Of a stretch of DNA of 35,996 bases, positions 8,092-26,472 are shown in pieces. The position numbers and the translations under genes were made by a program. Below the pieces are notes generated by a model. The model worked only from the letters and a program-made list of their open reading frames with translations, searched no databases and was not told where the DNA came from. The stretch's first letter is position 1; every line of letters begins with the position of its first letter. The DNA is from an uncultured bacterium (lineage in GTDB: Bacteria; Chloroflexota; Limnocylindria; Limnocylindrales; Limnocylindraceae): the NCBI GenBank assembly GCA_963923845.1, contig CAWULR010000003.1, forward strand, positions 1-35,996. Direction: 5' to 3'.

Positions 8092-8137
8092 GTGTGCTCG
8101 AAGGCGGAGCCCGCGGTCGACCGCGGGGCTCGAACGG

Positions 8138-9355
8138 TTAGGCGCGAACCGGGTTCAGGGCCTCCGAGGAGGGGTAACCCTCGGCCGTGACCTGAGTTCC
8201 GTCGAGGACTCGGTTGTCCTCGCCGCGAATGAATGCCTCGACGGCAGCGTGCGCGATGTCGTCGTGCAGCTGCAGCGGCGGGCTCTTCATGAAGTACGAC
8301 GACGGGGCGACCAGTGTCCCCGCCAGCTTCCTGTCGAGTCCGAGCTTCGCGCATCGAATCGCGTCGGTGATCACACCGGCGCTGTTCGGCGAATCCCAGA
8401 CCTCGAGCTTCAGCTCCGCCGTGAGCGGCACGCCGCCGAAGGTCGTCCCTTCGAGCCGGATGTTCGCCCACTTTCGATCGAGGAGCCACGGCACGAAGTC
8501 GGACGGTCCGACGTGCACCTGATCCTCGCCCATCGGTTCGTCGAGGATCGAGGTGACCGCGTTGGTCTTCGAGATCTTCTTGCTCTCGAGGCGATCGCGC
8601 TCGAGCATGTTCAGGAAGTCGGTGTTGCCACCGAAGTTCAGCTGATACGTGCGGTCGAGATGCACGCCACGGTCGGCGAAGAGTCGCGCCAGCACACGAT
8701 GCGAGATCGTCGCACCGACCTGGCTCTTGATGTCGTCGCCGACGACCGGCAGGCCGGCAGCGGCGAACTTCTTCTGCCACTCCGGCTCGCGACCGATGAA
8801 GACGGGGATCGCGTTCACGAACGCGCATCCCGCCTTGATCGCCTGCTCGGCGTAGTAGCGGATTCCCTCTTCGCTGCCGACCGGGAGGTAGGCAACGAGG
8901 ACGTCCACCTTGCGCTCCTTGAGCACGGCGGCGACGTCGACCGGCTTCTCAGGCGACTCCTTCACGACGTCGCGCAGGTACTTGCCGATGCCGTCGAGCG
9001 TCGGTCCGCGCTGCACGATCACGCCGGTGGTCGGGATCTCCTGGAACGTCCAGGTGTTGTTCGGATCGGCACCGAGCGCCACGGAGAGGTCCTTGCCGAC
9101 CTTCGTGACGTTGACGTCGAAGGCGGCCACGTACTCGAGATCGCGCACGTGGTAGCCGCCGAGCTCGACGTGCATCAGTCCGGGGACCTTGGCGTCGTTC
9201 TTGGCGTCCGCATAGAAGTAGCGACCCTGGACAAGGCTGCTCGCGCAGTTCCCCACGCCCGCGATCGCGACTCGAATCGGGTTCGTCGCCTTGACCGGCG
9301 ATGTCGGCGCCGGTCGTGCGTTCCACTGGGCCCGAGGCCCGTTCATCTCCATCAT
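8138..9355 (-). CDS. ino1: myo-inositol-3-phosphate (1-phosphate) synthase
   Basis: [44 protein letters not shown] and [10 protein letters not shown] motifs. AAGGGGG Shine-Dalgarno upstream. Confidence 0.97.
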
Positions 9356-10648: not shown

Positions 10649-12094
10649 CTAGCCTGCGATCGCCTTCGTCACCGCCTCGATCAAGCTCCCGGGCAGGAGG
10701 CCGAGGGCGAGCGTCCCGACTGCGGCGATGAAGAGCCCCGCCCGCAACAACGGTGCGGTCGCCACCTGAACGTCGGCAGCGCCTGGGTCGCGCATGAAGA
10801 GGTAGACGATGACGCGCAGGTAGTAGAAGGCGGCAACGGCGGCGTTGAGCACGGCGACGATCGCAAGCACGCTTGCGATCCCGCCCGCCTGGACCGCGCT
10901 GAGGATCACATACGCCTTGGCGAAGAAGCCGGCCGTCGGCGGGATTCCGGTGAGGCTCAGCAGGAAGAGTGCGGCGAGCAGCGCCGTCAGCGGATGCTTG
11001 CGGCCGAGACCGGCGAGGTCGGCGAGCTGCACGGTGGCGCCGGGTCGGCCCTGTACCGACGTGAGGAAGGCAAAGGCGCCGATGTTCATCAACGCGTACG
11101 CGGCGGAGTAGAAGAGCACGCCCGAGACGCCGGCGGATTCGCCAGCACCCGCTGCGACGACGCCGACCATGAGATACCCGGTGTGGGCGATCGAAGAGTA
11201 GGCGAGCATGCGCTTGACGTTCGACTGCGTCAGCGCGACGAGGTTTCCGAGCGTCATCGTCGCCGTTGCGAGGACGGCGACGACCGGAATCCATGTCCCG
11301 GCGAGCGGAGCGAGCGCGATCAGGAAGGTCTTGATCATCAAGACGAACGCGCCGATCTTCGGGCCGACAGAGAGGTAGCCGGTGATCGGCGTCGGCGAAC
11401 CCTGGTACGCATCGGGTGTCCAGTAGTGGAAGGGCACCGCCGCGATCTTGAACGCGACGCCCGTCGTCATCAGCGCAAGCCCCATCGCGATCGCCGGCTT
11501 GATCCCGGTGCCGCCTGCGGCAAGTGCCGATGCGACGCCCGCGAGCGACGCGGTTCCCGTCGCGCCCCAGAGCAACACGATCCCGAAGAGCAGGATCGCG
11601 CTCGAAAAGCTTCCGAGCAGGAAGTACTTGACGGCACCCTCGGTGCTCAACGGATCGCGCTTCGCGTATCCGGCGAGGAGGTATCCCGGAATCACCATCA
11701 ACTCGAGTCCGATGAAGAGCGTCACGAGATCGCCCGACGCACCGACCATGATCGCGCCGCAGAGGGCGAAGAGGAGCGTTGCGGCAAACTCGGCGCTCGG
11801 GTATCGCCGCGCTGCAAGGTGATCTGGCGAAACCAGCAGCGTGAGCGCGACCACGGCCGAACCGAGGAGGCCGAGATACGCGACGAACGGTCCGCCGATG
11901 TATGCGCCGCTGAGTGCCGTCTCCACCGTGTCGCCCTGCTGCAGCAGGATCCAACAGGTCGAGCCGAGGCCCGCGAGCGCAACGGCGATCGGCGCATAGC
12001 GGCGGCTCGGAGTCAGGGCATCGCTCAGCAGCACCGCGACCGCGGTGAGCCCGACGACGACGAGCGGTGCGATCGTGATCAGGTCGCCGCTCAT
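10649..12094 (-). CDS. nuoN: NADH-quinone oxidoreductase subunit N
   Basis: LFIGLEL, EGAVKYFLLG, FKIAAVPFHYWTPDAYQG, KRMLAYSSIAHTGY. Confidence 0.97.
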   Translation of the reverse strand: MSGDLITIAPLVVVGLTAVAVLLSDALTPSRRYAPIAVALAGLGSTCWILLQQGDTVETALSGAYIGGPFVAYLGLLGSAVVALTLLVSPDHLAARRYPSAEFAATLLFALCGAIMVGASGDLVTLFIGLELMVIPGYLLAGYAKRDPLSTEGAVKYFLLGSFSSAILLFGIVLLWGATGTASLAGVASALAAGGTGIKPAIAMGLALMTTGVAFKIAAVPFHYWTPDAYQGSPTPITGYLSVGPKIGAFVLMIKTFLIALAPLAGTWIPVVAVLATATMTLGNLVALTQSNVKRMLAYSSIAHTGYLMVGVVAAGAGESAGVSGVLFYSAAYALMNIGAFAFLTSVQGRPGATVQLADLAGLGRKHPLTALLAALFLLSLTGIPPTAGFFAKAYVILSAVQAGGIASVLAIVAVLNAAVAAFYYLRVIVYLFMRDPGAADVQVATAPLLRAGLFIAAVGTLALGLLPGSLIEAVTKAIAG

Positions 12095-13623
12095 CGGATG
12101 GCTCCTCCCGAGGCAAACATGAGGAACTGGGCCACGCTCGCGGCTACGGCGTTGGTGAGCAGCGACGGGAGGATCCCGAAGGCCACGATCATCGCGGCAA
12201 GCGGGGCAAGCGTGGCGATCTCGATCGCGGTGATGTCGGTGAGATGCGTGCCGAGGCCCTTCAGGAAGGGCGAAAGCGGTCCCATGAAGATGCGCTGGTA
12301 CATCCAGAGCAGGTAGACCGCAGCGAGGACCATCACCAGCGTCGCCGCCCCGGCCACCACCGGATTGGCGAGGAAGGCGCCGAGCAGCACGAGGAACTCC
12401 CCGACGAAGCCCGAGAGGCCGGGAAGCCCGACCGAGGCGAAGAGGAAGAAGCCGAAGAGCGCGGCATAGACGGGCGTGCGCGACGCCCAGCCGCCCATCT
12501 TCGCGATCTCACGGTCGTGCGTCCGTTCGTAGCCGATCCCGACCAAGAGGAAGAGTCCGCTCGTGATCAGGCCGTGGTTGAGCATCTGGAGGATCGCTCC
12601 GTCGACTCCCTGCTGGTTGAAGGAGAAGATGCCGAGCGTGACGAAGCCCATGTGGCTGACCGAGCTGTAGGCGATCAGCTTCTTCAAGTCGGTCTGCACG
12701 ATCGCCACGATCGCCCCGTAGATGATGGCGATCACCGAGAGCGCGATGAGAAGCGGGGCGAAGTCGTGCGCCGCCTGCGGGTAGAGCGGGATCGCGAAGC
12801 GGATAAACCCGTAGCCGCCGAGCTTCAACAGCACCCCGGCGAGGATCACGGAGCCCGCGGTCGGCGCCTGCACGTGCGCGTCGGGGAGCCAGGTGTGGAA
12901 CGGGAACATCGGCACCTTGATCGCAAAGGCGAGCGCGAACGCGGCGAAGGCAACGGCCTGGAGCGTCGGGTCGGCGACGGTGCCGCGCAGGGTCAAGAGA
13001 TCGAAGGCCCCGTCCCATGAGCCGGTGGCGACCTGGTGGCTGAACGCCGTCGCAAGGATCGCCACGAGCATGAGCAGCGATCCGACCAGCGTGTAGAGGA
13101 CGAACTTGATCGTGGCGTAGATGCGCTCGGCGCCGCCCCAGATGCCGATGATCAGGTACATCGGAACCAAGACGATCTCCCAGAAGATGTAGAAGAGGAA
13201 GAGGTCGAGCGAGAGGAAGACGCCGAGCATCCCGGTCTCCAAGATGAGGAAGCTGATGTAGTACTCCTTCACGCGGTTCTGGATCGGTCCGAAGCTTGCG
13301 AGGATGCAGATCCAGCTGAGCAGCGTCGTGAGGACGACCAACGCACCGGAGAGTCCGTCGACGCCGAGGTGGTAGGTGATGCCGAAGCTTGGGATCCAGG
13401 AGAGTTGTTCGCTGTACGCGAACTCGGACGAGAAGGTGCGGATCCCCGGAAGCATCAGCAGGCTGAGGACGAAGGTTGCAAACGAGACGAGGAGCGCCGC
13501 GCCGCGGATCAGCGCCGGTCGCGAAGACGGCACGACGCCGAGAAGCAGCGCGCCGGCGAACGGCAAGAGCGTGATGAGCGAGAGGATCGGCAGGCCCGCC
13601 ACCAGCTGCGTCACGTCGCTCAC
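12091..13623 (-). CDS. nuoM: NADH-quinone oxidoreductase subunit M
   Basis: LFLFYIFWE, AIKVPMFPFHTWLPDAHVQAPT, LLKLGGYG, KKLIAYSSVSHMG. GTG at 13623 is coupled to the nuoL stop. Confidence 0.97.
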   Translation of the reverse strand: MSDVTQLVAGLPILSLITLLPFAGALLLGVVPSSRPALIRGAALLVSFATFVLSLLMLPGIRTFSSEFAYSEQLSWIPSFGITYHLGVDGLSGALVVLTTLLSWICILASFGPIQNRVKEYYISFLILETGMLGVFLSLDLFLFYIFWEIVLVPMYLIIGIWGGAERIYATIKFVLYTLVGSLLMLVAILATAFSHQVATGSWDGAFDLLTLRGTVADPTLQAVAFAAFALAFAIKVPMFPFHTWLPDAHVQAPTAGSVILAGVLLKLGGYGFIRFAIPLYPQAAHDFAPLLIALSVIAIIYGAIVAIVQTDLKKLIAYSSVSHMGFVTLGIFSFNQQGVDGAILQMLNHGLITSGLFLLVGIGYERTHDREIAKMGGWASRTPVYAALFGFFLFASVGLPGLSGFVGEFLVLLGAFLANPVVAGAATLVMVLAAVYLLWMYQRIFMGPLSPFLKGLGTHLTDITAIEIATLAPLAAMIVAFGILPSLLTNAVAASVAQFLMFASGGAIR

Positions 13624-15554
13624 GCTCCGATCACCAGGTAGGCGATCGCCATCACGGCGAGGCCGACGGCGATGCCGAACGCGTAGTTCTGCACGCGTCC
13701 GGTCTGGATCTGGCGCAGGCCGCGCCCGCCGCTCGACGCAAGGGCACCGACGCCGTTGACGGCGCCGTCCACGACGCGACGATCGAACCACCAGGCGGCG
13801 TTGGCGACACGCGAACCGAGGCGAACGAAGATCAGGTCGTTCAGGTCGTCGAAGAACCAGCGATTGCGGCTTCCCGTATAGAGCGGCTGGAGGCGCGCGG
13901 TGATCGCGCGGATGCGATCGCCGTTGTCGCTGCGGAAGAGGCGAACGCCGACCACCGTGCCGATCGACGCCACCGTGACGCTCGCGAGCATCAACAGGCC
14001 GTCGATGCCGAAGAGCGTCCACGCTTCGTGTTCGTGCTCGAGGAGGACATTCGCCGTATGGAAGATCGGCTCGAGCCCGTGAACCAAGATGCCGTCGGCG
14101 AAGGGGAGGCCGAGCAGCGCGCCGATACCGACCGACGGGACCGCCAACAGCAGCAGCGGCAGCGTCATCGTCCAGGGCGATTCGTGCACGTGGACGCTCT
14201 CGCTGACGCGGCTGGTCCCCCAGAAGGTGAGGCCCATCAGGCGGAACATGTAGAAGGCGGTCGCGCCGGCGACCACCATCCCGACCAGCCAGACCCAGAC
14301 GTAGCCGAACTTGAACGCCTCGCCGAGGATCTCGTCCTTGGACCAGAAGCCCGCGAGCGGCGGAAGCCCTGCGATCGCGATCGTGCCGATGAGCATCGTG
14401 GCGTAGGTGATGGGAATCTTCTTGGCGAGACCGCCCATCTTCGGCATCTCCTGTTCGCCTTCGACCGCGTGGATGACGGAACCCGATCCGAGGAAGAGCA
14501 GGCCCTTGAAGAAGCCGTGCGTGATCAGGTGGAAGATCGCCGGCACCCACGCACCGACGCCGAGTGCGGCGAACATGTAGCCGAGCTGCGAGAGCGTCGA
14601 GAAGGCGAGGACGCGCTTGATGTCGGTCTGCGTGAACGCGATCGATGCGGCGAAGATCGCCGTGAAGATGCCGATCGCGGCGACGACGAGCATCGCCTCG
14701 TGGCTCGCAGCGAAGAGCGGGCTCATCCTCGCGACGAGATACACGCCGGCGTTGACCATGGTCGCAGCGTGGATGAGCGCGGAGACCGGCGTCGGTCCCT
14801 CCATTGCGTCGGGGAGCCAAACGTGGAGCGGGAACTGCGCCGACTTGCCGACCGCGCCGCAGAAGACGAGGAGGGCGATGAGGGTGGCGGCCGGCCCGGC
14901 GAGCTGCCCAGCGGCCACGCCCTCCAGGATCGTCTGGATGTCCAAGGTGCCGAAGACGGCGACGAGGCCCATCAGGCCGAGGGCGAAGCCGACATCGCCG
15001 ACGCGATTGGTGACGAAGGCCTTCTTCGCCGCAAGGCCCGGCTCGCGCTTCGTGTACCAGAATCCGATCAAGAGATACGAGGAGAGCCCGACGAGCTCCC
15101 ATGCCGCGAAGACGACGAGGAGGTTGCTGGCGAGCACGAGGAGGAGCATCGAGAACATGAAGAGGTTGAGGTAGGCGAAGAATCGCCAGTATCCGGGATC
15201 GTGGCTCATGTAGCCGACGCTGTAGAGGTGCACGAGTGCGCCGACGGTGGTGACGACCAGCAAGAGCGCGCCGGTGAGCGCATCGACGTGGATCCCGATG
15301 TCGAAGCTGAGGCTTCCGGACGCCACCCAGGTGAAGAGCGACGTTGTCGCGCCGTGCTCTCCGAAGTCTCCGAGGAGCGCCGGGATCGCCACGCTCATCG
15401 CGATCCCCCATGTGGCGAAGATCGCGGCGAGTGGAACGAGGTGTGCGGCGCCACCGAGCCGGCGACCGATCGCAGCCGTGAAGGCGAAGCCCACCAGCGG
15501 CAGGATCAACAGGAGCGGCGCGTACCCTGGGAGCAGCAGCTCGTCCACGCTCAC
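13620..15554 (-). CDS. nuoL: NADH-quinone oxidoreductase subunit L
   Basis: WELVGLSSYLLIGFW, KAFVTNRVGD, GKSAQFPLHVWLPDAMEGPTPVSALIHAATMV, C-terminal QTGRVQNY. GTG at 15554 is coupled to the nuoK stop. Confidence 0.97.
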   Translation of the reverse strand: MSVDELLLPGYAPLLLILPLVGFAFTAAIGRRLGGAAHLVPLAAIFATWGIAMSVAIPALLGDFGEHGATTSLFTWVASGSLSFDIGIHVDALTGALLLVVTTVGALVHLYSVGYMSHDPGYWRFFAYLNLFMFSMLLLVLASNLLVVFAAWELVGLSSYLLIGFWYTKREPGLAAKKAFVTNRVGDVGFALGLMGLVAVFGTLDIQTILEGVAAGQLAGPAATLIALLVFCGAVGKSAQFPLHVWLPDAMEGPTPVSALIHAATMVNAGVYLVARMSPLFAASHEAMLVVAAIGIFTAIFAASIAFTQTDIKRVLAFSTLSQLGYMFAALGVGAWVPAIFHLITHGFFKGLLFLGSGSVIHAVEGEQEMPKMGGLAKKIPITYATMLIGTIAIAGLPPLAGFWSKDEILGEAFKFGYVWVWLVGMVVAGATAFYMFRLMGLTFWGTSRVSESVHVHESPWTMTLPLLLLAVPSVGIGALLGLPFADGILVHGLEPIFHTANVLLEHEHEAWTLFGIDGLLMLASVTVASIGTVVGVRLFRSDNGDRIRAITARLQPLYTGSRNRWFFDDLNDLIFVRLGSRVANAAWWFDRRVVDGAVNGVGALASSGGRGLRQIQTGRVQNYAFGIAVGLAVMAIAYLVIGA

Positions 15555-15871
15555 TGCCTCATCGTGTCGTACTCGTCGACCAGCGGTGTCTTCCTGTTTC
15601 TGTAGATGGCGATGACGATGGCGAGCCCGACCGTCGCCTCGGCGGCAGCGACGGCGACGATGAGCAGGGCGAAGGCGATCCCCTCGCCGGCGAGTGCCGG
15701 AATGAACGCGCCGAACGCGACGGCCGAGAGGTTCACCGCGTTCAGCATCAGCTCGATGCTCATCAGCATGCTGATCGCATTGCGGCGGGCCAGGAAGCCG
15801 AAGGCGCCGATGGAGAAGAGCAGCCCGGCCAGGACCAGGTACGGCTCCAGGTGACCGGCGATCTGGCTCAC
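15551..15871 (-). CDS. nuoK: NADH-quinone oxidoreductase subunit K
   Basis: RRNAISMLMSIELMLNAVNL and AAAEATVGLAI. Confidence 0.97.
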   Translation of the reverse strand: MSQIAGHLEPYLVLAGLLFSIGAFGFLARRNAISMLMSIELMLNAVNLSAVAFGAFIPALAGEGIAFALLIVAVAAAEATVGLAIVIAIYRNRKTPLVDEYDTMRQ

Positions 15872-16440
15872 CCCGCCTCCTCGTCCCCGTCGAGGCTGGG
15901 CTGGTCCGCGCGGCGAGCAGAGGCAAGGTAGATCCCGCCGATCACGGCGGCGAGGATGAGGACGCTGACCACCTCGAAGGCGAGAAGGTACGGGCCGAAG
16001 AGCTCGGCGGCGGCACCGGTCGTCCCCTGCGCTGCGGGCGTGTCATCGAACGTCGTCGACGACCAGTCGTTGGCGCCGAGCGTGATCGCGAAGATGATCG
16101 AGAGCAGCGCCGCGATCGCAGCCGCCGGGAGCGCCTGCGTCTGGAAGGTGAGCCTCGTCGGTGCCGCCTTCGACTGCGTCAGCATGATCGCGAAGAGGAT
16201 CAGCACGCTGATCGCTCCGATGTAGACGAGCACCTGGGCGCCCGCGAGGATCGCCGCGCCGAGCATCACGTAGATCCCCGCCAACGCGCCGAGCGCGAGG
16301 ATCAGCATCAGGCCGTTGCGGATGATGTCGCGGCCGAGCACCACGCCGAGCGCCGCAGCCACCGTGACGCCGCCGAGCGCGACGAAGAGTGCGTCCGCCC
16401 ACGTGATGCCGATGAACGGGAGCGTGTCGGGCAGCGGCAT
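15868..16440 (-). CDS. nuoJ: NADH-quinone oxidoreductase subunit J
   Basis: AQVLVYIGAISVLILFAIML and YLLAFEVVSVLILAAVIG. Confidence 0.95.
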   Translation of the reverse strand: MPLPDTLPFIGITWADALFVALGGVTVAAALGVVLGRDIIRNGLMLILALGALAGIYVMLGAAILAGAQVLVYIGAISVLILFAIMLTQSKAAPTRLTFQTQALPAAAIAALLSIIFAITLGANDWSSTTFDDTPAAQGTTGAAAELFGPYLLAFEVVSVLILAAVIGGIYLASARRADQPSLDGDEEAG

Positions 16441-16443
16441 GGA

Positions 16444-18999
16444 CTACTTCCCGCGCAGGTTCGACGGCAGGACCGGAAGCGCCCGCGCAGGATCGTGGCG
16501 TCGCCCGGCGACGGTGTTCTCCCAGTTGCTCTCGCCGCGGATGAACGTAGCCTCCGAGGTGCGCTCGATCTTCGCGAGTGCGATCAAGTCGATCATCGGC
16601 TCGCTGCGATCCGTGTGCGCGAGTTCGAAATCGAAGCCGCTGCGAAGCGCGTCGTACGGACATGCGTCGACGCAGATGCCGCAGAGGATGCAGCGCGACT
16701 CGTCGACTTCGTACTTGGTGAGGATGCGCGGCTTCGGCATGAGTGCGCCGGTCGGGCACGTCTCTGCGCATCGCCCGCACGAGACGCACGGCGACTCGTT
16801 GAGGCTCATGTCGAGCGGCGTGGTGACGAGCGTGTCGAATCCGGTGCGCATGAAGTCGTAGCAGGCGGCGCCCACGACCTCGGCGCAGACGTTGGCGCAG
16901 CGGCCGCAGTCGATGCATCGCGATGGCTCGCGCAGGATGAAGGCGTGCGAATCGTCGCGCACGTAGTCGTGGTTTGCGCCCGTCCAGCGGTTCTCCGTGA
17001 TCGAGCGGAAGCCGGCACCGTGGCGATGCTCCTTCTCGAGGCTCTTCAGCGTGGTGCCGTACTCGATGCCGAGTCGGCGCAGGTCGCAGAAGCCGATCGC
17101 CTCGCAGGTGCACTGGAGGCAGCGCGTGCTCTCCGCCATCGCCTCTGACTTGCTGTAGGGGATCTCGTACTGGATGTAGTCGTGCTTCCGCTCGTCGGCG
17201 TGGAGCGCCTTGAGTCGGAGCCGCGGCTCTTTCGTCTCGCCGGTGAACGGCACGATGCTGAGGAACTCGGGCTGCGGCTCGGCCAGTGTCTGGCGCGTGC
17301 GGATCTCGCCGAGATCGAGCCCCTTCAGATAGGCGTCGGCGGCGTAGGCGCAGCGACGACCGTCGGCGATCGAGGCGACGACGGTCGTGGCGCCGTTGCG
17401 CACGTCGCCACAGCCGAAGACGCCGTCGCGGCCGGTCTGGAAGGTGACGGCGTCCGCCTTCAGTCGACCGTTCTTCGTGGCGCTCACCCCGTCGGCGCCG
17501 ACGCTCGCCCAGGTCATGTCCGGCCCCTGACCGATCGCCTTGAGGATGCGGTCGCACTCGATGATGAACTCCGTCCCCGGAGCCGGCTCGGGTCGGCGCC
17601 GACCCGATGCGTCTGGCGCGCCGAGCTGCATGCGGATGAACTCGAGGCCCTTGACGCGGTTCTTCTCGTCCACGATGACGCGCGTCGGACCCGCCTGGAA
17701 GATGGCGCGGGCCCCCTCCTCGATCATCTCGTGCACTTCGTCCGCGGCCGGCATGTCCTTCATGTCGCGTCGGTAGACGAGCGTCACCTCCTTTGCGCCG
17801 AGGCGGATGCTCGTGCGCGAGCAGTCCATCGAGGTGTAGCCGCCGCCGACCACCACCACGCGGCTCCCTTCGTGGTTCGGATACTCGAGGCCGAGCGCGG
17901 CGGTGTGCAGATAGTCGAGGCCGTCGATCACCCCTTCGGCGTCTTCGCCCGGGATGCCGAGATCGTTCGTGTCGTAGCAGCCGATCGCCACGATCACCGC
18001 GTCGTAGCCCTGCGCCTTGAGGTCGGCGGTGGTGAAGTCGCGCCCGAGCATCTTGCCGCACTCGAATCGGCCGCCGAGTCGCGTGATCGACTGGTACTCG
18101 CCGTCGAGCACCTCGATCTTCGGCAGGCGGTACTGCGGGATTCCGTACCGGAGCATGCCGCCTGGCTCCGGATCCTTCTCGAAGATCGTGACGTCATGGC
18201 CGGCAACCAAGAGGTAGTAGGCGGCGGATGCACCGGCGGGACCCGAACCGATCACGGCGACGCGCTTCCCGGTCTTCGGCTGCAGCTCGAACGGAAGCGG
18301 CGGATCGATGTTCTCGTCCCACATCGCCTTCAGCACCTGATCGCCGGCGTAGCGGTGGCTGTCGCGGATCGCGATCGCTTCGTCCACTTCGTCGCGGCGG
18401 CAGTGGTCCTCGCACGGCGCCGGGCAGACGCGTCCGAGGATGCTCGGGAACGGAATCGTGCGCTTGAAGATGCGCGCCGACTCGCGGAACTGCGATTCGG
18501 CGTTCGCCTTCAAGAAGCCCGGAATGTCGATGTGGCTCGGGCACTTGTTCTGGCAGGGCGGCAGGCAGTAGGCGTTGTGGTCGCTGAAGATCAGCTCCAG
18601 GTTGGTGCGACGGATCTCGCGCAGCCGATCGGTCTGCGTCGCGATCACCGTCTCCGGCTCCGCCTTCGCAGAGCAGCTGATCAACGGCGCGTCGCACCCC
18701 TCGACGTCGACGACGCACATGCGGCAGGCGCCGAACCCCGGCAGCTTCGGGTCGTAGCAGAGCGTCGGCACCTCGATGCCGTTCGCGCGGCAGACCTCGA
18801 GGATCGTCTGTCCTTCGAACGCCTCGAGTCGGTTTCCGTCGATCTCAACGTAGAACGTCGGGGTGCGCTGCGGTCGCTGAGGGCTGCGCGTCGAGAGGAG
18901 TCGTTCGAGCGCCTGGCTCTCCAGTGCCTGGTTCTCGCTCGCGGCTGCGTGCTCGCTCGGCGCAAGGTTGCCGCTCGGTCGCTCCATCAGGCCGGCCAT
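16444..18999 (-). CDS. Chimeric Fe-S flavoprotein: NuoG-type N-terminal Fe-S module, GltD/NfnB-like FAD-NAD(P)H domain, 2x[4Fe-4S], and C-terminal half of NuoI
   Basis: [2Fe-2S] IEVPTLC...GACRMC...C; GltD motifs PPCQNKCP, LGRVCPAPCE, GSGPAG, GGMLRYGIP, GGGYTSMD, VYRR; RCIDCGRCANVC and CVSCGRCAETCPTGAL; NuoI-like tail YEVDESRCILCGICVDACPYDAL..GFDFELA. Confidence 0.9.
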   Translation of the reverse strand: MAGLMERPSGNLAPSEHAAASENQALESQALERLLSTRSPQRPQRTPTFYVEIDGNRLEAFEGQTILEVCRANGIEVPTLCYDPKLPGFGACRMCVVDVEGCDAPLISCSAKAEPETVIATQTDRLREIRRTNLELIFSDHNAYCLPPCQNKCPSHIDIPGFLKANAESQFRESARIFKRTIPFPSILGRVCPAPCEDHCRRDEVDEAIAIRDSHRYAGDQVLKAMWDENIDPPLPFELQPKTGKRVAVIGSGPAGASAAYYLLVAGHDVTIFEKDPEPGGMLRYGIPQYRLPKIEVLDGEYQSITRLGGRFECGKMLGRDFTTADLKAQGYDAVIVAIGCYDTNDLGIPGEDAEGVIDGLDYLHTAALGLEYPNHEGSRVVVVGGGYTSMDCSRTSIRLGAKEVTLVYRRDMKDMPAADEVHEMIEEGARAIFQAGPTRVIVDEKNRVKGLEFIRMQLGAPDASGRRRPEPAPGTEFIIECDRILKAIGQGPDMTWASVGADGVSATKNGRLKADAVTFQTGRDGVFGCGDVRNGATTVVASIADGRRCAYAADAYLKGLDLGEIRTRQTLAEPQPEFLSIVPFTGETKEPRLRLKALHADERKHDYIQYEIPYSKSEAMAESTRCLQCTCEAIGFCDLRRLGIEYGTTLKSLEKEHRHGAGFRSITENRWTGANHDYVRDDSHAFILREPSRCIDCGRCANVCAEVVGAACYDFMRTGFDTLVTTPLDMSLNESPCVSCGRCAETCPTGALMPKPRILTKYEVDESRCILCGICVDACPYDALRSGFDFELAHTDRSEPMIDLIALAKIERTSEATFIRGESNWENTVAGRRHDPARALPVLPSNLRGK

Positions 19000-20264
19000 T
19001 ATTTGCTCCGTCCCGCTACTGCACCGCTCGTTTCAGCGGCGACTCCGGTTGGCACGAACTCTCGCTCGAAGTATCGCATCCCCGTCAGGAGCGGGCTCGG
19101 TGTCAATCGCTCGTGCGCGCAGAGCGCGCTGTCGGCGACATCGGCGGCGAGTGCATGGAGCCTCTGCACATCGTTCGGGCCGGCGAGCCCGTCGACGAAG
19201 CGTTGTCCGATCTCGGCGAGGCGGCGAGTGCCGATACGGCACGGGATCGTCTTCCCGCACGCTTCGTCGGCGCACCATCGGGTCAACAGCGCAGCAAGCT
19301 CCGGGATGGCGGTGCCCTGGTCGACGGCGAGGAGGGCGCCCGAGCCGATATGGGCACCGACGGCGGCCAGGCCGCGGCCGCTGTAGGGCGTGCTCGCCAG
19401 CAGGTTCGCGGGGACGAAACCGCCAGACGGCCCACCGACGAGCAGCGCCTTGATCGTGGCGCCCTTCGTGGGGCCACCCGCTGCGGCGACGATCTCGGCG
19501 AGCGTCGTGCCGGTCGGAACCTCCATCACGCCGACGCTGGCGAGCGGACCGCCGACCTGCACGAGTGCGGTGCCGGGCTCCGCCGGGTCGCCGATCTCCG
19601 CGAATGCGCGGGCTCCGTTGCCGACGATCCACGTCACCGCTGCGAGCGTCGCCACGTTGTTGACGGCGGTCGGCTTCCCCAGATACCCGACGGTCGATGG
19701 ATACGGTGGTGTCTGTTCAGGTTGACCCCGTCGACCGGCAAGCGCCTTGAGCAGCACCGTCTCCTCGCCGATCATGCTCGAGCCCTGCAACGGCCGCACG
19801 CTCATCGTCAGCTCTCGGCCGCTCCCGAGCAGATCGGAGCCGAACACGCCGTCTCGCTCGGCGCCCTGGATGATCGCCTCGAGGCGACGGATCGCGTCCG
19901 TGTACTCCGCACGCACCGCGATGAAGGCGTGGCGCGCACCGACGGCGAGCGCAGCGATCGCGAGGCCCTCGACGACCGCCTGCGCGTTCTTCTCGAGAAG
20001 GAGTCGGTTCGTGAACGCGGCGGGGTCCGACTCGTACCCGTTGGCAACGGCGTATCGCTCGTCGGCGTCGCTCGCGGCGGTGATCCGCCACTTCTCGCCG
20101 GTGAGGAATCCGCCGCCGCCCTTGCCGCGCAGGCCCGCGTCGATGAGCGTCTGGAGCGTCGACACAGATCCGGCGGAGATGGCGCTGCGCAGCGCCGCCC
20201 ACGGCGTCGCCGGCGGCGACATGAGCAGCTGCGACCAGCCTTTCGGTGCGGCGATCAACTTCAT
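18999..20264 (-). CDS. nuoF: NuoF-like flavoprotein subunit with degenerate motifs
   Basis: GLRGKGGGGFLTGEKW, GEETVLL, PPYP...GKPTAVNNVAT, GGPSGG, EACGKTIPCRIG. ATG at 20264 overlaps the upstream TGA; its TAA overlaps the next ATG. Confidence 0.88.
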   Translation of the reverse strand: MKLIAAPKGWSQLLMSPPATPWAALRSAISAGSVSTLQTLIDAGLRGKGGGGFLTGEKWRITAASDADERYAVANGYESDPAAFTNRLLLEKNAQAVVEGLAIAALAVGARHAFIAVRAEYTDAIRRLEAIIQGAERDGVFGSDLLGSGRELTMSVRPLQGSSMIGEETVLLKALAGRRGQPEQTPPYPSTVGYLGKPTAVNNVATLAAVTWIVGNGARAFAEIGDPAEPGTALVQVGGPLASVGVMEVPTGTTLAEIVAAAGGPTKGATIKALLVGGPSGGFVPANLLASTPYSGRGLAAVGAHIGSGALLAVDQGTAIPELAALLTRWCADEACGKTIPCRIGTRRLAEIGQRFVDGLAGPNDVQRLHALAADVADSALCAHERLTPSPLLTGMRYFEREFVPTGVAAETSGAVAGRSK

Positions 20265-21082
20265 GCGGCGTATCTCCCCGCAAGCGCCGCCGCCCACGTC
20301 TCGGCGTTGCGACTCGACAGATCGCGTTGCGGTTCTCCGTCGATCACCACGAGCGGCGACGGTGCGTCGGGAAGGTGCGTCGGCAGCGCCTCGAGTCGGA
20401 GGTTGCTCCATGGAATCGCGTGGCCGAACTCGGTGCCGAATTCGTATGAGAGCGTCCCGATCACGCGACCCGCGCCTGCGACCAGGCAGTTGGCGCAGCG
20501 ACACACGGCGATCGAGCGGTTTCGCCCCGGCTCGAAGGTGAGGTGCTTGTAGAAGGTCGCCGTGCCGTAGACCATCGCGTACCAGGCGCCGGTGGCGCGA
20601 CTGATGCGCTTCAGCGCGTCGACGGGGAGATAACCGTACGCGGCCTGCACCGCTTCGAGGATCTGCAGCATGTGGTGCGGGTCGTAGTCGGCGCTCTCCA
20701 GCGCCGCCTCGACGGGACGAAGGTCGATCGCGCTCGCCTGTGACGCGGCCGCGTCGGAGACGGTTCGACCGGAGCGGCGCATCGCAGATTCCTCGCGACG
20801 CTCGGCGTACTGCTCTGCAGGACCCCAGTGCACCGCGTAGCGCCCTTTGGTGTCCGTGCCGCCCATGTCGATGCACTCGATCGGACACGCCTGCGCGCAC
20901 TGGAAACAGGTCTCGCACTTCAGCGTTCCGCGCTCGTCGGTGACGAGCTCGAGTCGACCTCGGTTTCGCGGGGCGATGTCCGGCTTCGCCTCCGGATACA
21001 TCACCGTCTTCTTCGGCTGGAAGAAGCGCGTCAGCGTGAGGCCCATTCCGCGGATGATTCCCGAGCCTGGAATCCGTGCCAT
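20261..21082 (-). CDS. Fusion of the NuoI N-terminal half to a NuoE-like domain
   Basis: NuoI-like GMGLTLTRFFQPKKTVMYPE...RNRGR...KCETCFQCAQACPIECI with only one Cys motif, then NuoE-like LQILEAVQAAYGYLP...VYGTATFY...VCRCANC..AGA. AGGAGG Shine-Dalgarno upstream. Confidence 0.9.
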   Translation of the reverse strand: MARIPGSGIIRGMGLTLTRFFQPKKTVMYPEAKPDIAPRNRGRLELVTDERGTLKCETCFQCAQACPIECIDMGGTDTKGRYAVHWGPAEQYAERREESAMRRSGRTVSDAAASQASAIDLRPVEAALESADYDPHHMLQILEAVQAAYGYLPVDALKRISRATGAWYAMVYGTATFYKHLTFEPGRNRSIAVCRCANCLVAGAGRVIGTLSYEFGTEFGHAIPWSNLRLEALPTHLPDAPSPLVVIDGEPQRDLSSRNAETWAAALAGRYAA

Positions 21083-21091
21083 CGCTCCTCC

Positions 21092-22429
21092 TTATGCGGT
21101 CAGCAGCACGGCGAGCGCCGTGGCGAAGAGGTTGAGCAGCGACGCAGGGAGGAGCCACTTCCAGGCAAAGCCCATCAGCTGGTCGATCCGCGCGCGCGGA
21201 AGGGTGCCGCGCATCCAGACGAAGATGAAGATCAACGTGAACGTCTTCAGGAGGAAGAAGACGAGGTCGGCGACCGGGGGGAGCATCGCCCAGGCCCAGG
21301 CGCCGACGACGGCGGTGGAGAGGGCGCCGAAGATGAGGAAGCCGGCGAGGAGCGCCTGCCAGGCCTTGATACGGGCGCTGATCGCGTAGATCGGGAGGCC
21401 GATCGCCAACGTCCCGAGGATCGGCGCGACGCCGGCGAGGATCGGGAGGAGGATGCCGAGGCTTCCGAGGTCGACGGCGATCTCGGGGTGGAACGGCAGG
21501 TCGATCGGCGCATTGGAGCCGCCCAGGAAGAGCGCGGAGAAGAGCGCCGAGACGATGAAGACGTTGACGTACTCGGCGAAGAAGAAGAAGCCGAAGCGCA
21601 TCCCGGAGTACTCGGTCGCAAACCCGGCGACGATCTCCTGGTCCGCCTCCGTGTTGTCGAACGGCGTGCGATTCGCCTCTGCGGTGATCGCGATGAAGAA
21701 GATGATCGCGGCGAGCGGCTGGCGGAAGATGAACCAGTCGAGCAGCGATCCACCCTGCGCCTCGACGATCTTCGGCAGCGACAGCGTGCCGGTGAGGATG
21801 ATGATGCCGACGACCGACAGCGTCAGCGGAATCTCGTAGCTGATCGCCTGCGCCGCGGCGCGAATCCCGCCGAGGAGCGAGTACTTGTTGAACGACGACC
21901 AGCCGGCCATCATCAGGCCCACCACGCCGAGGCCGCCGATCGCAAAGAAGTAGAGCAGCCCGAACTCGAGACCGGCGCTCGTGAGATCGGGGGCGAACGG
22001 GATCACCATCACCGTCATGAAGCTCGCGAGATAGACGACGACCGGCGCGAGCGTGAAGACCGGAACGTCGACGCTCGGCGGCGTGAAGTCCTCTTTCATC
22101 AGCACCTTGAGGCCGTGGACGACGCTCATCACGGCGCCGGCGGGACCGATGCGGTCCGGTCCGATGCGCAGGTTCATCAACGCGATGATCTTCATCTCCA
22201 TGTAGATCAGCAGGAACGCGACGGGAACCGTCACCAAGAAGGTGATCACGGACGCAGCAAGGAAGCGGACGATCGGCAGGTTTGCGGCGATCGTCGCGCC
22301 GATGAACGGTCCTGCGACGATCAAGAGTGCGGTCAGCGCCGCGCCGCCGATCGACAGGATCGGCAACAGGATGGCGAGCGCCCGCCCGCCCGGCGTCAGC
22401 CGCGACCAGACCGCCTGCGCGCCGCTCAC
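21092..22429 (-). CDS. nuoH: NADH-quinone oxidoreductase subunit H (enlarged)
   Basis: RIGPDR, KED, NKYSLLGGIRAAAQAISYE, AEANRTPFD, TEYSG, WMRGTLPRARIDQLM. GTG at 22429 is coupled to the nuoD stop. Confidence 0.96.
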   Translation of the reverse strand: MSGAQAVWSRLTPGGRALAILLPILSIGGAALTALLIVAGPFIGATIAANLPIVRFLAASVITFLVTVPVAFLLIYMEMKIIALMNLRIGPDRIGPAGAVMSVVHGLKVLMKEDFTPPSVDVPVFTLAPVVVYLASFMTVMVIPFAPDLTSAGLEFGLLYFFAIGGLGVVGLMMAGWSSFNKYSLLGGIRAAAQAISYEIPLTLSVVGIIILTGTLSLPKIVEAQGGSLLDWFIFRQPLAAIIFFIAITAEANRTPFDNTEADQEIVAGFATEYSGMRFGFFFFAEYVNVFIVSALFSALFLGGSNAPIDLPFHPEIAVDLGSLGILLPILAGVAPILGTLAIGLPIYAISARIKAWQALLAGFLIFGALSTAVVGAWAWAMLPPVADLVFFLLKTFTLIFIFVWMRGTLPRARIDQLMGFAWKWLLPASLLNLFATALAVLLTA

Positions 22430-23640
22430 TTGTCCACTCCGCCCATGACCGGATCGAGGCTCGCCATGACCGCCATGGTGTCGGCGATGAGGTTGCCGCG
22501 CGTCAGCGGCCCGACAAGCTGCAGGTGGACGAACGACGGATCGTGGATGCGCATCCTGAACGGCTGGTCGGTGCCATCCGAGATCGCGTAGACGCCGTAG
22601 GCGCCGCGCGGGCCCTCCACCGCACCGAAGGCGCGCCCCGGTCGCGGTCGCAGCAGTCTCGGCAGCTTCGCCATGACCGGTCCGTCCGGCATCTCGTGCA
22701 GCACCTGGTCGATGATGCGAATCGATTCGCGGATCTCGTCGATTCGGACCATGTAGCGCGCGAGCGAGTCGCCCTCCTCGCGCGTCGGAATGTCGAACTC
22801 GAGCTCTGGGTACACGAGATAGGGGCGGTCGCGTCGCAGGTCGAACGGAACGCCGGTTGCGCGAAGGTTCGGACCGGTGACGCCCATGCGCAGTGCGGTC
22901 GCCCTGTCCAGGGTGCCGAGGCCGCGCGTGCGGCGCACGAAGAGCTCGTTCTCGTTGATGAGGCCGGTGTTCGAGTCGATCTGCGCCGCAGCGCGACTCA
23001 TCCAGTTGCCGAGGCGGCTCATGAACTCGTGGTTCAGGTCGCCGTTGACGCCGCCGATGCGGTAGTAGTTGTAGAGCAGCTTCTGCCCCGTCAGCGCCGC
23101 GAGCATGTCCACGATCTCGTCGCGCTCGATGAAGGACCAGAGGATCGGCGTGATCCCGCCGAGGTCGAGCGCCATCCAGCCTTGGAAGAGGGTGTGGCTG
23201 GCGATGCGGTTCAGCTCCATCGTGAGGACGCGGATGTACTGGGCGCGGCGTGGAACCTCCACGTCCATGAGCTTCTCGAAGGCGGCGACGGGGGCGGCTT
23301 CGCAGAAGAGGGAGGCGACGTACTCGAGCGGATCCGTGTAGCAGATCGCCTGGTGGTAGTCGGCGTTCTCGCAGAGCTTCTCCACGCCGCGGTGCAGGTA
23401 GCCGAGCACGGGGTCGAGATCGACGACCTGCTCGCCGTTCACCTTGACGACGATGCGCAGCACGCCGTGCGTCGACGGGTGCTGCGGCCCCATGTTGACG
23501 AACATCTCGCCATCGCGAAGGTTGAGGAACTCTGCCTGGCGCTCCGTCTGCGCCGTCGGCGCCGGCTCGTACCACTCCGACGCGGCAGGGATCGCGATCC
23601 GCGGATCGTCGAGCGACGGGCGCGTCTGCTGCGTGGTCAC
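22426..23640 (-). CDS. nuoD: NADH-quinone oxidoreductase subunit D
   Basis: NMGPQHPSTHGVLR, GYLHRGVEK, ELNRIASH, VEGPRG, SLDPVMGGVDK. Confidence 0.97.
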   Translation of the reverse strand: MTTQQTRPSLDDPRIAIPAASEWYEPAPTAQTERQAEFLNLRDGEMFVNMGPQHPSTHGVLRIVVKVNGEQVVDLDPVLGYLHRGVEKLCENADYHQAICYTDPLEYVASLFCEAAPVAAFEKLMDVEVPRRAQYIRVLTMELNRIASHTLFQGWMALDLGGITPILWSFIERDEIVDMLAALTGQKLLYNYYRIGGVNGDLNHEFMSRLGNWMSRAAAQIDSNTGLINENELFVRRTRGLGTLDRATALRMGVTGPNLRATGVPFDLRRDRPYLVYPELEFDIPTREEGDSLARYMVRIDEIRESIRIIDQVLHEMPDGPVMAKLPRLLRPRPGRAFGAVEGPRGAYGVYAISDGTDQPFRMRIHDPSFVHLQLVGPLTRGNLIADTMAVMASLDPVMGGVDK

Positions 23641-23642
23641 CG

Positions 23643-24194
23643 CTACGCCCCTGCGCTCTTCCTGACCACGGTCGCGTGCGTGGCGTCTGCCGGCGTGCCG
23701 ACACGCTCCATGTTGCGCACGCCCGCTGCAGGCGATCGCGAAGCATCGTCGGCGAGGTGGAAGTCCTTTCGAAGCGGATGGCTGACGTAGTCGTCCGGCA
23801 TGTAGATGCGACGTAGATCGCGATTCCCCTCGAAGACGATCCCGAACATGTCGTACGCCTCGCGCTCCATCCACTCGGCGCCGGGCCAGAGCGAGACGAG
23901 CGAGTTCACGCGCGGTGCGTTGCGATCGACGCCGGCAACGATCACCCGCAACCAGTCGCTGCTCGAGAACGATGCGAGATGGTAGACGATCTGCATCTCC
24001 TCGCCGGTGTCCACGCCGCAGAGATCCATCAGGATCTCGAATGCGAATCGCGGCTCGTCGTGCAGCGCGCGGAGCACGGGGATCGCATCGGCGATGCCGA
24101 CGCGGATCTCCGTCTCGTCGAAGCGTTGGCGCACCGGCGCACGGAGGGTCTCGCCGAATCGGTCGTGCAGCGCGGCGGCGAGGGCGCGATCCAT
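23643..24194 (-). CDS. nuoC: NADH-quinone oxidoreductase subunit C
   Basis: DLCGVD and WMEREAYDMFGIVFEGNRDLRRIYMPDDYVSHPLRKDF. ATG at 24194 overlaps the nuoB TGA. Confidence 0.96.
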   Translation of the reverse strand: MDRALAAALHDRFGETLRAPVRQRFDETEIRVGIADAIPVLRALHDEPRFAFEILMDLCGVDTGEEMQIVYHLASFSSSDWLRVIVAGVDRNAPRVNSLVSLWPGAEWMEREAYDMFGIVFEGNRDLRRIYMPDDYVSHPLRKDFHLADDASRSPAAGVRNMERVGTPADATHATVVRKSAGA

Positions 24195-24865
24195 CAGATG
24201 CCGTCCGGAACCGTCGGTCCGATGGCCCGCTCGGGCCAGTGGCCGCGACGATCCTTGATGAGCTGTTGCAGCTTCATCATTCCGTAGATGAGTCCCTCGG
24301 GCCGCGGCGGACAGCCGGGGATGTAGACGTCGACCGGCATGACGCGGTCGATCCCCTGCACCACCGAATAGCTGCGCTTGTAGCGACCGCCGGAACAGGT
24401 GCAGTCGCCCATCGCAACAAGCCACTTCGGTTCTGGCATCTGCTCCCAGAGTCGGATCAGCGGTTCCGCCATCTTGGTTGTGAGCGTTCCGGCGACGATC
24501 AGCACATCTGCCTGTCGCGGCGATGCGCGGAACGGGAACATCCCCCACCGGTCGATGTCGTTCTTCGGTGTCGCGGTCGACATCATCTCGATCGCGCAGC
24601 AGGCGAGTCCGGAGAGGAGCGGCCAGAGACTGTTGGCGCGAATCAGATCCAGGACGATGTCGGCGGTGGTGGGGATTGCGCCGAGCGCGCCGCTCCAGCG
24701 CGCGTCGTCGACGCGTCCGTCGCCGGTCGCGTCATAGCGCGCCAGCTCCAAGTTCGGATGCTGCGCGAGGGGGATGCCGCCGTACGCTCGCGGATCGTCG
24801 GTCGTCCAGAGCGTGTTCTTCGCCACGATCGGCGCCTGGAGCGCGCGCTTCGGATCGCGCGTCAT
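24194..24865 (-). CDS. nuoB: NADH-quinone oxidoreductase subunit B
   Basis: [39 protein letters not shown] at 24865 overlaps the nuoA TGA. Confidence 0.97.
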
Positions 24866-25218
24866 CGCCACGAGAGCACCCCTTTGCGCCAGGCGTAGCC
24901 GAGGCCGACGAGCAGGACGCCGATGAAGATCGCCATGGAGACCAGCCCCTCGACCAGGAGGGCCTGGAAGTTGAGTGCCCAGATGTAGATGAAGACGATC
25001 TCGACGTCGAAGGCGACGAAGAGGAGGGCATAGAGATAGAAGGAGAGGCCGAAGCGCCCGTGGGTGTCGCCGTAGGTGTCGATGCCCGACTCGTAGGGGA
25101 CCTGCTTGCCGCGGCTCCCTCGCGTGCGGTGGGAGATCAACCAGGCGATGCCGATCGTCAGGAAGACGAAGGAGACACCCGCGCCGGCGAAGCCGAGGAC
25201 GTACCAGAGTCCGTTCAT
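24862..25218 (-). CDS. nuoA: NADH-quinone oxidoreductase subunit A
   Basis: [35 protein letters not shown] Shine-Dalgarno. Confidence 0.97.
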
Positions 25219-25287: not shown

Positions 25288-25293
25288 ATTCTA
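25288..25293 (-). promoter_or_regulatory. Candidate -10 element for the nuo operon
   Basis: Minus-strand TAGAAT overlapping the TAG stop of the upstream methyltransferase, about 70 nt before the nuoA ATG. Confidence 0.45.
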
Positions 25294-26472
25294 GACGAGG
25301 GGGCGGTTCGGAGCCGCTGCGCCGGGGAGCGGATTGGCACGATCGGCGATACGCCGTCGCCGCTCGGGAGCACCGCTGGCGAAGAGTTCGACGGCGAAAC
25401 CTCCCATGCCACGTGGATTCATCAGGTGGGCGAGGGCCGACCGCAGGGCGATCGCCCCTTCGAGCGTCGCGTCGGGCCCGCGCCGCACGCGGTCGAGTTC
25501 GCTCTCCAGCCCGGCCCCCGCGATGAACGCCGCCTGGTTCGTCTGGGCCACCGGCTCGAGTCCGGCCGCAGCTGCGGCGCGGCGCAGCGCGGTGAGGTCC
25601 ACATGGGCGGTGAGGTCGCGCTCACCGGGTTCGCTCAGCAGGTCCGCCGTCGCTCGATGACCCTGATAGGCGAGCGCTGTCCCCGCCATCCGGCTCCTCG
25701 CATCGCGGAGCAGCGCGCCATCGCGTCCGTAGTCGATCACCACCACCAGACCGTCGCTCACCCGTGTCGTCACCTCGCGGAACCACGGCTCGATGGCGAA
25801 GCAGGCCTCCGCCAGCTGTCCCTCGGCGAGTGGCGCACCGAAGCGATCGAGGACGCGGCGCGCGCGATCCGAATCGAGTGCTCGTTCGACCCAGATTCGC
25901 GTCGTGCGGTCGTCGGCGAGACCGACGCACCGCTCGGCGAGTCCCGACGGTGCGCCGCTTCGTCCCACGAAGATGTCGAACGGAAGCGCATCGAGGTACT
26001 CGTTGGCGATGACGATGCCCGCGACCGGCGGCGCGCCGTCGGCGACGAGCGACGGCGAACCGCGCTCCTGCACTCTGCCGACGGCGCTGCGCAGCTCGTC
26101 GCTGCGGTGCGCGTTGACGTCGATCGGCTGGATCTCGAGCGCGTCGACGAGCGGCGATCGGTCGCGCCGCAGCTGCGCGATCACCGCGAGCACGAGTGCA
26201 CCGGATCCGGCGCCATACTCGACCCAGCGAAACCGTCGAGGTTCGCCGAGCCGGCGCCACACCTCGGTCGCCAGGCGCGAGAGCGCAGAGCCGAGCAGCG
26301 TGTGCAGCTCGGGCGCCGTGATGAAATCGCCCTCCCGACCTGCGCGCACCTGACGCGTGACGTAGTAGCCGAGACCGGGTTCGGTGAGCGCGCGCTCCAT
26401 GAATCGGGAGAACGAGATCGCTCCGCGCTCCGCGATCTCTGCGTCGATGCGCGCCTCGAGTTCGCTGCTCAT
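25291..26472 (-). CDS. SAM-dependent methyltransferase, MidA/NDUFAF7 family
   Basis: [66 protein letters not shown]. Confidence 0.93.

Follow-up and report, generated by a model that had tools for sequence, protein, structure and literature searches.

NuoF is the textbook site of electron entry into complex I, and its motifs for flavin mononucleotide (FMN) and for the iron-sulfur cluster N3 are among the most constant in bioenergetics. What, then, is the role of a NuoF homolog in which several of these motifs have been replaced? The question is raised by a stretch of 35,996 nucleotides (contig CAWULR010000003.1, positions 1 to 35,996; assembly GCA_963923845.1), here called the window, from an uncultured bacterium of the genus Candidatus Limnocylindrus (Chloroflexota). 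The window carries an operon of order nuoA-B-C-D-H-E'-F'-G'-J-K-L-M-N (10649..25218, minus strand, like every element of the operon located below), in which neither a separate nuoI nor a canonical nuoG is found. F', the NuoF/NfnB-like gene in question, occupies 20264..18999 and encodes 421 amino acids beginning MKLIAAPKG. The answer that we favour, with moderate confidence, is that electrons enter the complex as reduced nicotinamide adenine dinucleotide phosphate (NADPH) at the product of the neighbouring gene G', and that F' is retained mainly as a clamp that carries a re-ligated side-branch cluster; it would be at most a weak inlet for the non-phosphorylated dinucleotide (NADH), and bifurcation to ferredoxin would not take place.

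Limnocylindrales are abundant in freshwater and soil, and the case is one of a NuoF remodelled within a complex whose inlet is probably a domain for NADPH and flavin adenine dinucleotide (FAD) derived from Nfn/Stn transhydrogenases. If so, the complex would act as an NADPH:quinone oxidoreductase that pumps protons. It would also provide a natural experiment on the need for NuoF once it is no longer the inlet, and a case of an N3 cysteine ligand exchanged for a carboxylate.

The domain content of F' is that of NuoF: Pfam recognizes Complex1_51K (residues 42-211; 121.2 bits, cut-off 31.2), SLBB (235-283) and the NADH_4Fe-4S bundle (323-403; 65.4 bits, cut-off 23.5). No Fer4, C-terminal ferredoxin or N-terminal thioredoxin-like domain was detected by the Pfam scan of the 421 residues, and alignments to solved HydB and NfnB chains stop at about residue 404. 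An earlier note on this DNA had listed a number of departures from canonical NuoF motifs and had stated that C-terminal ferredoxin domains of the HydB/StnB type are absent; every string that it quoted is found in the translation, and Pfam sees the three NuoF domains only. The Gly-rich FMN/NADH loop reads GLRGKGGGGFLTGEKW (residues 44-59, 20088..20135; GKGGGGFL is residues 47-54) and lies opposite GRGG(G/A)GFPTG in the alignment to solved HydB/NfnB. At residues 75-87 (20004..20042), NGYESDPAAFTNR replaces the canonical NADEGDPGAFMDR, and the NADE motif reads NGYE. At residues 159-171 (19752..19790), LQGSSMIGEETVL replaces GAGAFVCGEETAL with retention of Glu167-Glu168. The AFM motif reads AFT, and the canonical NNVET is NNVAT (residues 202-206, 19647..19661), with Ala205 in the place of Glu. 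In the four-helix bundle, where the solved chains have ESCGKC.(P/F)C and LCGLGQ, F' has WCADEACGKTIPC (residues 330-342, 19239..19277) and LCAHER (residues 381-386, 19107..19124; CAHE is 382-385). Three of the four cysteines of the N3 site (B1 in Nfn-type enzymes) are thus present, namely Cys336, Cys342 and Cys382, and Thr339 replaces the second one.

Such substitutions are not common among NuoF proteins. When motifs were counted in the query and 149 of the 150 nearest cluster representatives at 50% identity, the second N3 cysteine was kept in 135/150 and the Asp of NADE in 111/150, and all 21 NuoF-like paralogs extracted from the same order have canonical motifs.

Within its own family, the altered N3 site is constant. 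A scan of species-representative genomes detected relatives of F' in 559 stretches, and related loci bear the names Candidatus Limnocylindrus, Candidatus Aquidulcis and Limnocylindrales; the ortholog set used below comprises the window and the best 80 of these 559 loci at the species level. All 80 fit the gene order as far as their contigs reach, and 30 show the full ABCDHEFGJKLMN arrangement. The strings EACGKTIPCR and LC.HE are present in 81/81 orthologs, and the N3 motif is also constant in the 120 nearest protein clusters, a few of which have Ser instead of Thr. Furthermore, loss of the second cysteine is coupled to a gain three residues after the fourth. In an alignment of 381 rows of NuoF-like sequences (360 complete at these positions, 21 incomplete), Glu stands there in 205/205 rows without the second cysteine (Thr in 202, Ser in 2, Ala in 1) and in 0/155 rows that have it, where Gly (153), Pro (1) or Ala (1) is found instead. 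Because the rows are kin and not independent, we treat this coupling as a lead and not as a statistic. Judged by this conservation, the N3 site of F' is one that was changed and then fixed; the erosion proposed in the earlier note is not borne out.

The phylogeny gives an idea of how often the change occurred. Limnocylindrales and the lineages L141/L142 form one clade (support 96/93) in which all members have Thr and Glu, and the sister clade, represented by lineage L120 (100/99), has CxxCxxC and Gly. A sequence with Ala and Glu, P0135, lies outside both. The alignment-based states need two changes on the tree, and the position of P0135 implies that the coupled Cys/Glu change occurred either twice or once with a coupled reversal.

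Altogether, these observations point to a ligand swap that yields a cluster held by three Cys and one Glu, with a 3Fe-4S cluster as the alternative. From the covariation we infer that Glu385 may be the new ligand. A precedent exists in NfnL of NfnSL, whose [4Fe-4S] cluster is ligated by three Cys and one Glu according to the accessible text of PMC12018979; there, the carboxylate-ligated cluster lies beside a flavin, and in F' loss of a cysteine is paired with gain of a glutamate. The Cys3Glu cluster of NfnL, however, sits in a different protein and a different fold.

Two other residues were considered as candidates for the missing ligand. One is the cysteine upstream of the motif, Cys331, to which the earlier note had drawn attention. 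It is indeed present in the window and in 68/81 orthologs, but it is no conserved replacement: the remaining 13/81 have G, S or A, and the position aligns with an extra position of the B2 site, which is Thr in T. sibiricus NfnB (accessible text of PMC12018979). On this alignment Cys331 is best read as a relic of the Bfu B2 site. By the B2 position given in the same source, F' of the window has Ala319 at the place of Cys437 and lacks the H...CPAGVC tail. Relatives with larger genomes retain the whole B2 set (TC(I/V)VD and H...CPAGVC), which the genus of the window has lost. The other candidate, His384, is not favoured, as L141, L142 and P0135 lack the second cysteine and have Leu at that position, yet keep Glu.

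The FMN/NADH pocket shows a different picture. Its residues were mapped, through the HydB/NfnB alignment, onto those named for Aquifex NuoF and T. sibiricus NfnB in the accessible parts of PMC11677225 and PMC12018979. Kept in the window are the Gly loop (G47-G52), F53, K58, E78-S79, E167-E168, Y188, GGPSG, KW, GEET and PPYP, the last within Thr185-Pro-Pro-Tyr188-Pro (19698..19712), where Tyr188 is at the adenine-stacking position. In place of the Asp of NADE stands Tyr77, which is fixed in 81/81 orthologs (sister lineages have Ile or Phe), and Asp80 replaces Glu. Other changes are specific to the genus, as compared with the larger-genome relatives, and they affect positions 163, 185 and 54 as well as the B2 site: Ser163 is found at the position of Phe281 of T. 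sibiricus NfnB, where the relatives have Tyr; Thr185 is at the position of Arg303, which forms a salt bridge to the NADH phosphate and is Arg in the relatives; and Leu54 replaces, throughout the genus, a loop Pro that the relatives keep. Lys48 in place of the Arg of the Gly loop is confined to the genome cluster of the window.

The extreme case is a lineage of the genus (G018, also L102; 92% complete) with a single NuoF homolog. Its F' reads QLHCHRDGGASVASSW, GESTVL and TRAAT at the pocket motifs and has suffered an 8-residue deletion. The operon around it is intact, with G' 91% identical and with both the N3 motif and the E' ligands kept. Four of the 120 protein clusters are in the same state. 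As far as sequence can tell, the outline of the pocket is kept across the order, several contacts are lost in the streamlined genus and the pocket is destroyed in one lineage. A fully dead pocket is likely for the window's genus; we do not draw that conclusion for the whole family, because 80/81 orthologs keep the Gly loop.

An ortholog of F' is present in 40/41 related genomes, and 23/24 genomes of the genus and 16/16 of the related family carry it without stop codons. In the streamlined genus it is the sole NuoF homolog; the genome of the window (around 1 Mb, 82% complete, 156 contigs) has a single PF01512 match. The larger genomes of the related family (L019-L022, L103-L119) have up to five additional NuoF-like matches each, at 29-41% identity, and the four such paralogs whose flanks were examined adjoin genes for NuoE- or NuoG-like proteins, while genes for membrane subunits are absent from those flanks. 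Sister lineages known from metagenome contigs (L120, L122, L142) share an ABCDH-E-F-G-JKLM operon; among them, F' of L142, like that of L141, has Thr and Glu together with Leu in place of His384. The sequences can thus be arranged in a graded series, from a canonical sister lineage through larger-genome relatives with a changed N3 site and an intact pocket to the streamlined genus with an eroded pocket and, finally, a pocketless lineage. The existence of this series makes the role of F' a testable question.

As a rule, NuoF ranks with the best conserved subunits of complex I. Within the genus, F' sequences are 77.4% identical to that of the window, as against 92.2% for G', 90.4% for D, 90.4% for B and 87.7% for E'; lower values are found for J (73.4%) and N (67.0%) alone, and F' is the fastest-evolving hydrophilic subunit of the operon. 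When compared with the three nearest loci, F' has a ratio of non-synonymous to synonymous substitution rates (dN/dS, NG86 method) of 0.088-0.091, E' one of 0.028-0.030 and G' one of 0.021-0.025; between F' and its counterpart in G018 the ratio is 0.169. The overall range for F' is 0.09-0.19, and its dN/dS is about 3-4 times that of E' and G'. Divergence of F' is 2.8 times that of G' within the genus and 1.9 times that of G' among the larger-genome relatives, and the stem branch of the genus in the F' tree is long (0.54). F' remains under purifying selection. In the dN/dS comparison, which the earlier note had listed as a check, F' does evolve faster than its neighbours (0.09 against 0.02-0.03), but selection on it persists.

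Among 106 sites conserved in at least 90% of the 21 canonical paralogs, the F' family keeps 61, has 14 changed and fixed, and varies at 31. In the FMN domain the numbers are 32 kept, 6 changed and fixed, and 22 variable (60 sites); in the bundle they are 9, 6 and 3 (18 sites). By these counts, the pocket has been relaxed and the bundle re-specified. Identity per domain within the genus shows no strong contrast (0.81 in the FMN domain, 0.88 in the bundle).

If F' is no longer the main inlet, where would electrons enter? The neighbours of F' provide a candidate. The ATG of F' overlaps the stop codon of the upstream NuoE-like gene E' (ATGA), and its TAA overlaps the ATG of G' (TAATG); because of the overlaps at both junctions, the three genes are read as a unit. 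G' (16444..18999) encodes an NfnA/StnA-like protein (1.4e-165). In it, a NuoG-type N-terminal [2Fe-2S] domain is joined by a GltD/NfnL-like domain, which bears the sites for FAD and NADPH, by a ferredoxin part of the 2x[4Fe-4S] kind and by NuoI's C-terminal half. Across 65 full-length orthologs, the cofactor motifs for FAD, NADPH and iron-sulfur clusters show little or no variation; the NADPH motif VTLVYRRDMKDMPA (17746-17787) is present in 64/65, and its YRR also stands in the NfnA/StnA chains that oxidise NADPH. With all these motifs kept, G' is a credible point of electron entry, as the earlier note had proposed for the GltD domain.

E' (20261..21082) is a fusion as well. It combines the N-terminal half of NuoI (residues 9-81, 20840-21058, with the first CxxCxxCxxxCP motif) with a NuoE-like domain. 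Positions 1-65 of the 121-position NuoI model match residues 12-77 of E', and positions 71-117 match residues 758-804 of G' (16588-16728). The NuoE-like domain has the ligands C194-x-C196-xx-C199 ... H236 (20375-20503), invariant in 56/56 full-length orthologs, and lacks the second Cys pair of the N1a/C1 site, which suggests a site of three Cys and one His. The whole NuoE-like cluster domain is missing from 21/78 relatives.

The kinship of F' agrees with that of G'. By sequence, F' matches HydB/NfnB best (1.2e-86 to 6.9e-86) and complex I NuoF less well (7.4e-68 and weaker), and its scores against the NCBIfam NuoF equivalogs TIGR01959, NF008436 and NF010120 are all below cut-off (299.4 vs 558.65, 224.9 vs 749 and 221.8 vs 389). 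For a structural model of F' (predicted local distance difference test, 88.5), the closest match on superposition is NfnB of C. saccharolyticus, with a template modelling (TM) score of 0.89. Matches to HydB and to NfnB/StnB, the BfuB of the NfnABC (= StnABC) transhydrogenases (PDB 9bov, 9n5u, 8oh5), range from TM 0.85 to 0.89, and a Rossmann-like FMN/NADH domain, an SLBB domain and a four-helix bundle are common to all. F' is also partnered, as NfnB/StnB are, with an NfnA-like protein carrying an NfnL/GltD domain and with a NuoE/NfnC-like protein, and its larger-genome relatives keep the B2 His/Cys motif. It differs from NfnB, StnB and HydB in the lack of the N-terminal thioredoxin-like and C-terminal 2x[4Fe-4S] domains, in a B1 site where Thr stands in for the second Cys and a Glu comes after the fourth, in the replacement of several FMN/NADH contacts, and in being encoded in a nuo operon with partners fused to NuoI halves. 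With NuoF, Nqo1 and NDUFV1, F' shares the Pfam domains, the length class and a location between NuoE-like and NuoG-like genes in a nuo operon; it departs from them in having three of the four N3 cysteines, NGYE for NADE and NNVAT for NNVET. The order ABCDH-EFG-JKLMN and the split nuoI set the locus apart from complex I operons.

On these matches, F' and G' are of Nfn ancestry, and F' is not a randomly eroded NuoF. Given that E' and G' carry the NuoI halves, the N-module can be described as a trimmed Nfn/Stn enzyme inserted into nuoI. No description of a complex with split NuoI and Nfn-type subunits was found in the openly accessible literature, including text on Limnocylindr- together with NADH. 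Many Chloroflexi have 13 of the 14 nuo genes and lack NuoG, according to the accessible text of PMC4453560.

The mechanism that we propose is the following. NADPH would be the main electron donor and would deliver to the FAD of G', from which electrons would pass through the clusters of G' to the re-assembled NuoI, to N2 and to quinone. F' would clamp E' to the N-domain of G', thereby holding together the two carriers of the NuoI halves; its re-ligated cluster, either a 3Cys+Glu [4Fe-4S] or a [3Fe-4S] cluster, would lie on a side branch, and F' would serve at most as a weak second inlet for NADH. Ferredoxin would not be a product of the complex. NADPH could be supplied from NADH by PntAB: PntB of the proton-translocating transhydrogenase was found in 5/5 genomes of the genus that were searched, each of about 1.1 Mb (for example, G000:C2:13031-14410), so that NADH could feed an NADPH-specific inlet. 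The type II NADH dehydrogenase profile PF22366 had no match in five genomes of the genus, but the control was detected in only 3/14 known genomes; because of this insensitivity, absence of the type II enzyme is not concluded.

Several observations weigh against this interpretation. The adenosine-side NADH positions F53, K58, E168 and Y188 (as named in the accessible sources above) and the GGPSG loop are kept in the window, which is the pattern expected from selection for nucleotide binding. Conservation among the orthologs is high for the Gly loop (80/81), the Lys of KW (80/81) and GEET (79/81), and 32 of the 60 canonical-conserved sites of the FMN domain remain unchanged. The [2Fe-2S] domain of G' retains its four cysteines in 65/65 orthologs, a finding that fits a live wire to F', as in canonical enzymes the cluster of this NuoG-type domain joins the main chain to N3. 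In L120 and L122, which have the same operon, F' is nearly canonical and retains CxxCxxC, NNVET, the AF motif and Arg; therefore, the design began with two working dinucleotide sites. The rate contrast was obtained with dS values of 0.8-1.2, near saturation, and is a comparison within this operon family, not against canonical nuo operons. Lastly, both the role of F' as a clamp and the type of cluster in it are inferred. The dead NuoF scaffold of the earlier note must consequently be toned down. Fast evolution of F', decay of the pocket in the genus and its destruction in G018 beside an intact operon speak for it, but with the adenosine positions and the Gly loop kept it is too strong a statement for the whole family.

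The retained positions lend themselves to another explanation, namely a complex I with two inlets. F' would bind FMN and oxidise NADH at a useful rate through a retuned N3/B1 cluster, G' would take NADPH, and electrons from both would serve to reduce quinone and pump protons; the substitutions would be compensated or would tune redox potentials. We consider this a possible reading, albeit one that we lean against. It would account for the conservation of the Gly loop, GEET, F53, K58, Y188 and GGPSG, for the intact N1b-type [2Fe-2S] site of G', for the invariance of the N3 motif and for dN/dS values far below 1, and it finds its model in the sister lineages with the same operon and canonical N3, NNVET, AF motif and Arg. 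Furthermore, a residue other than Cys in the middle of CxxCxxC is a classic trait of 3Fe-4S clusters that still conduct electrons, such as the medial cluster of NiFe hydrogenase and that of FrdB. On the other hand, by the mapping described above the aromatic residue over the flavin (now Ser163), the Arg that contacts the NADH phosphate (now Thr185), the loop Pro and the B2 site are all gone from the genus, and the G018 lineage lives with a destroyed pocket and no other NuoF homolog. F' is also the fastest hydrophilic subunit, and its 299.4 bits are far from the NuoF equivalog cut-off of 558.65.

A variant of the favoured reading assigns a more active role to the altered sites. The former bifurcation site would have been re-ligated as a whole, with 3Cys+Glu (or 3Fe-4S) at N3/B1, 3Cys+His at the NuoE-type [2Fe-2S] cluster and Tyr for Asp in the flavin pocket, and E'F', placed on a side branch of a complex I that is fed by NADPH and pumps protons, would act as its redox buffer or valve. 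This proposal is tentative, and we regard it as rather unlikely. If correct, it would define a new role for the NuoEF module and would bring natural carboxylate and histidine ligation into the N-module of complex I.

It is improbable, in our view, that F' has lost its flavin and become a nucleotide sensor, which would bind NAD(H) or an ADP-containing ligand and tune the complex to the NADH/NAD+ ratio. Retention of the adenosine positions F53, K58, E168 and Y188 together with changes on the flavin side (Tyr77, Ser163 and Ala205, by the mapping on the accessible sources) is what such a sensor would show, and purifying selection on F' would have a reason. The G018 lineage has, however, lost K58, E168 and the loop as well, and no precedent was found in the literature consulted on Nfn/NuoF enzymes.

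A bifurcating or confurcating enzyme is more improbable still. For Deferribacteres, Proteobacteria, Planctomycetes and Nitrospirae, the accessible text of PMC9304861 (Schut et al. 2022) predicts Nuo-Bfu complexes bound to the membrane, and by analogy an E'F' core might couple NAD(P)H and ferredoxin to quinone reduction. F' and G' do descend from Nfn-Bfu enzymes, and here, as in those predicted complexes, NuoEFG is replaced by a Bfu-type module. In the accessible part of that source, however, BfuB has ferredoxin domains, the proposed reaction is confurcation of NADH and ferredoxin, and the phyla are others; its survey required a ferredoxin-type domain in BfuB and would therefore have missed the F' family. 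F' lacks both the C-terminal ferredoxin-type domains (B3/B4) and a thioredoxin-like domain at its N-terminus, and the B2 site is absent from the window. The ligands of the B1-FMN-C1 flavobicluster that characterizes BfuB are not canonical, with three Cys at B1 and CxCxxC...H at C1 of E', and the lineages, judging by their record titles, are of an aerobic type, from freshwater and soil. As F' is devoid of the cluster domains that define BfuB and the NuoE-like domain that bears C1 is dispensed with in 21/78 relatives, bifurcation to ferredoxin is not supported, and the objection that the earlier note had raised against it stands. Finally, the notion of a decaying pseudogene or an assembly artefact, suggested by the many substitutions at consensus positions and by an assembly in 156 contigs at 82% completeness, is refuted by an open frame translationally coupled to both neighbours, by the stop-free orthologs in 23/24 genus and 16/16 related-family genomes, by dN/dS values of 0.09-0.19 and by relatives in 559 stretches.

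Additional observations concern the surroundings of the complex. Metatranscriptome contigs with at least 95% identity (four libraries from two studies, compared over 16444-21082) cover parts of F' (19147-19481 and 19765-19966) and also span the gene junctions at 18828-19003 and 20105-20310; since such libraries may hold DNA, these contigs do not establish transcription or its level. Directly upstream of nuoA, on the same strand, lies a Methyltransf_28 gene (25291-26472, minus strand; PF02636, E 3.1e-41). To PF02636 belongs NDUFAF7/MidA, an assembly factor of mitochondrial complex I that methylates the NuoD homolog.

Outside the operon, this Chloroflexota window carries envelope genes that resemble those of Actinobacteria, in two regions of the minus strand (4079-9355 and 28695-32858). 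They include genes for a myo-inositol-1-phosphate synthase, a lipid A-type acyltransferase and a GT4 glycosyltransferase, as well as a protein O-mannosyltransferase-like gene.

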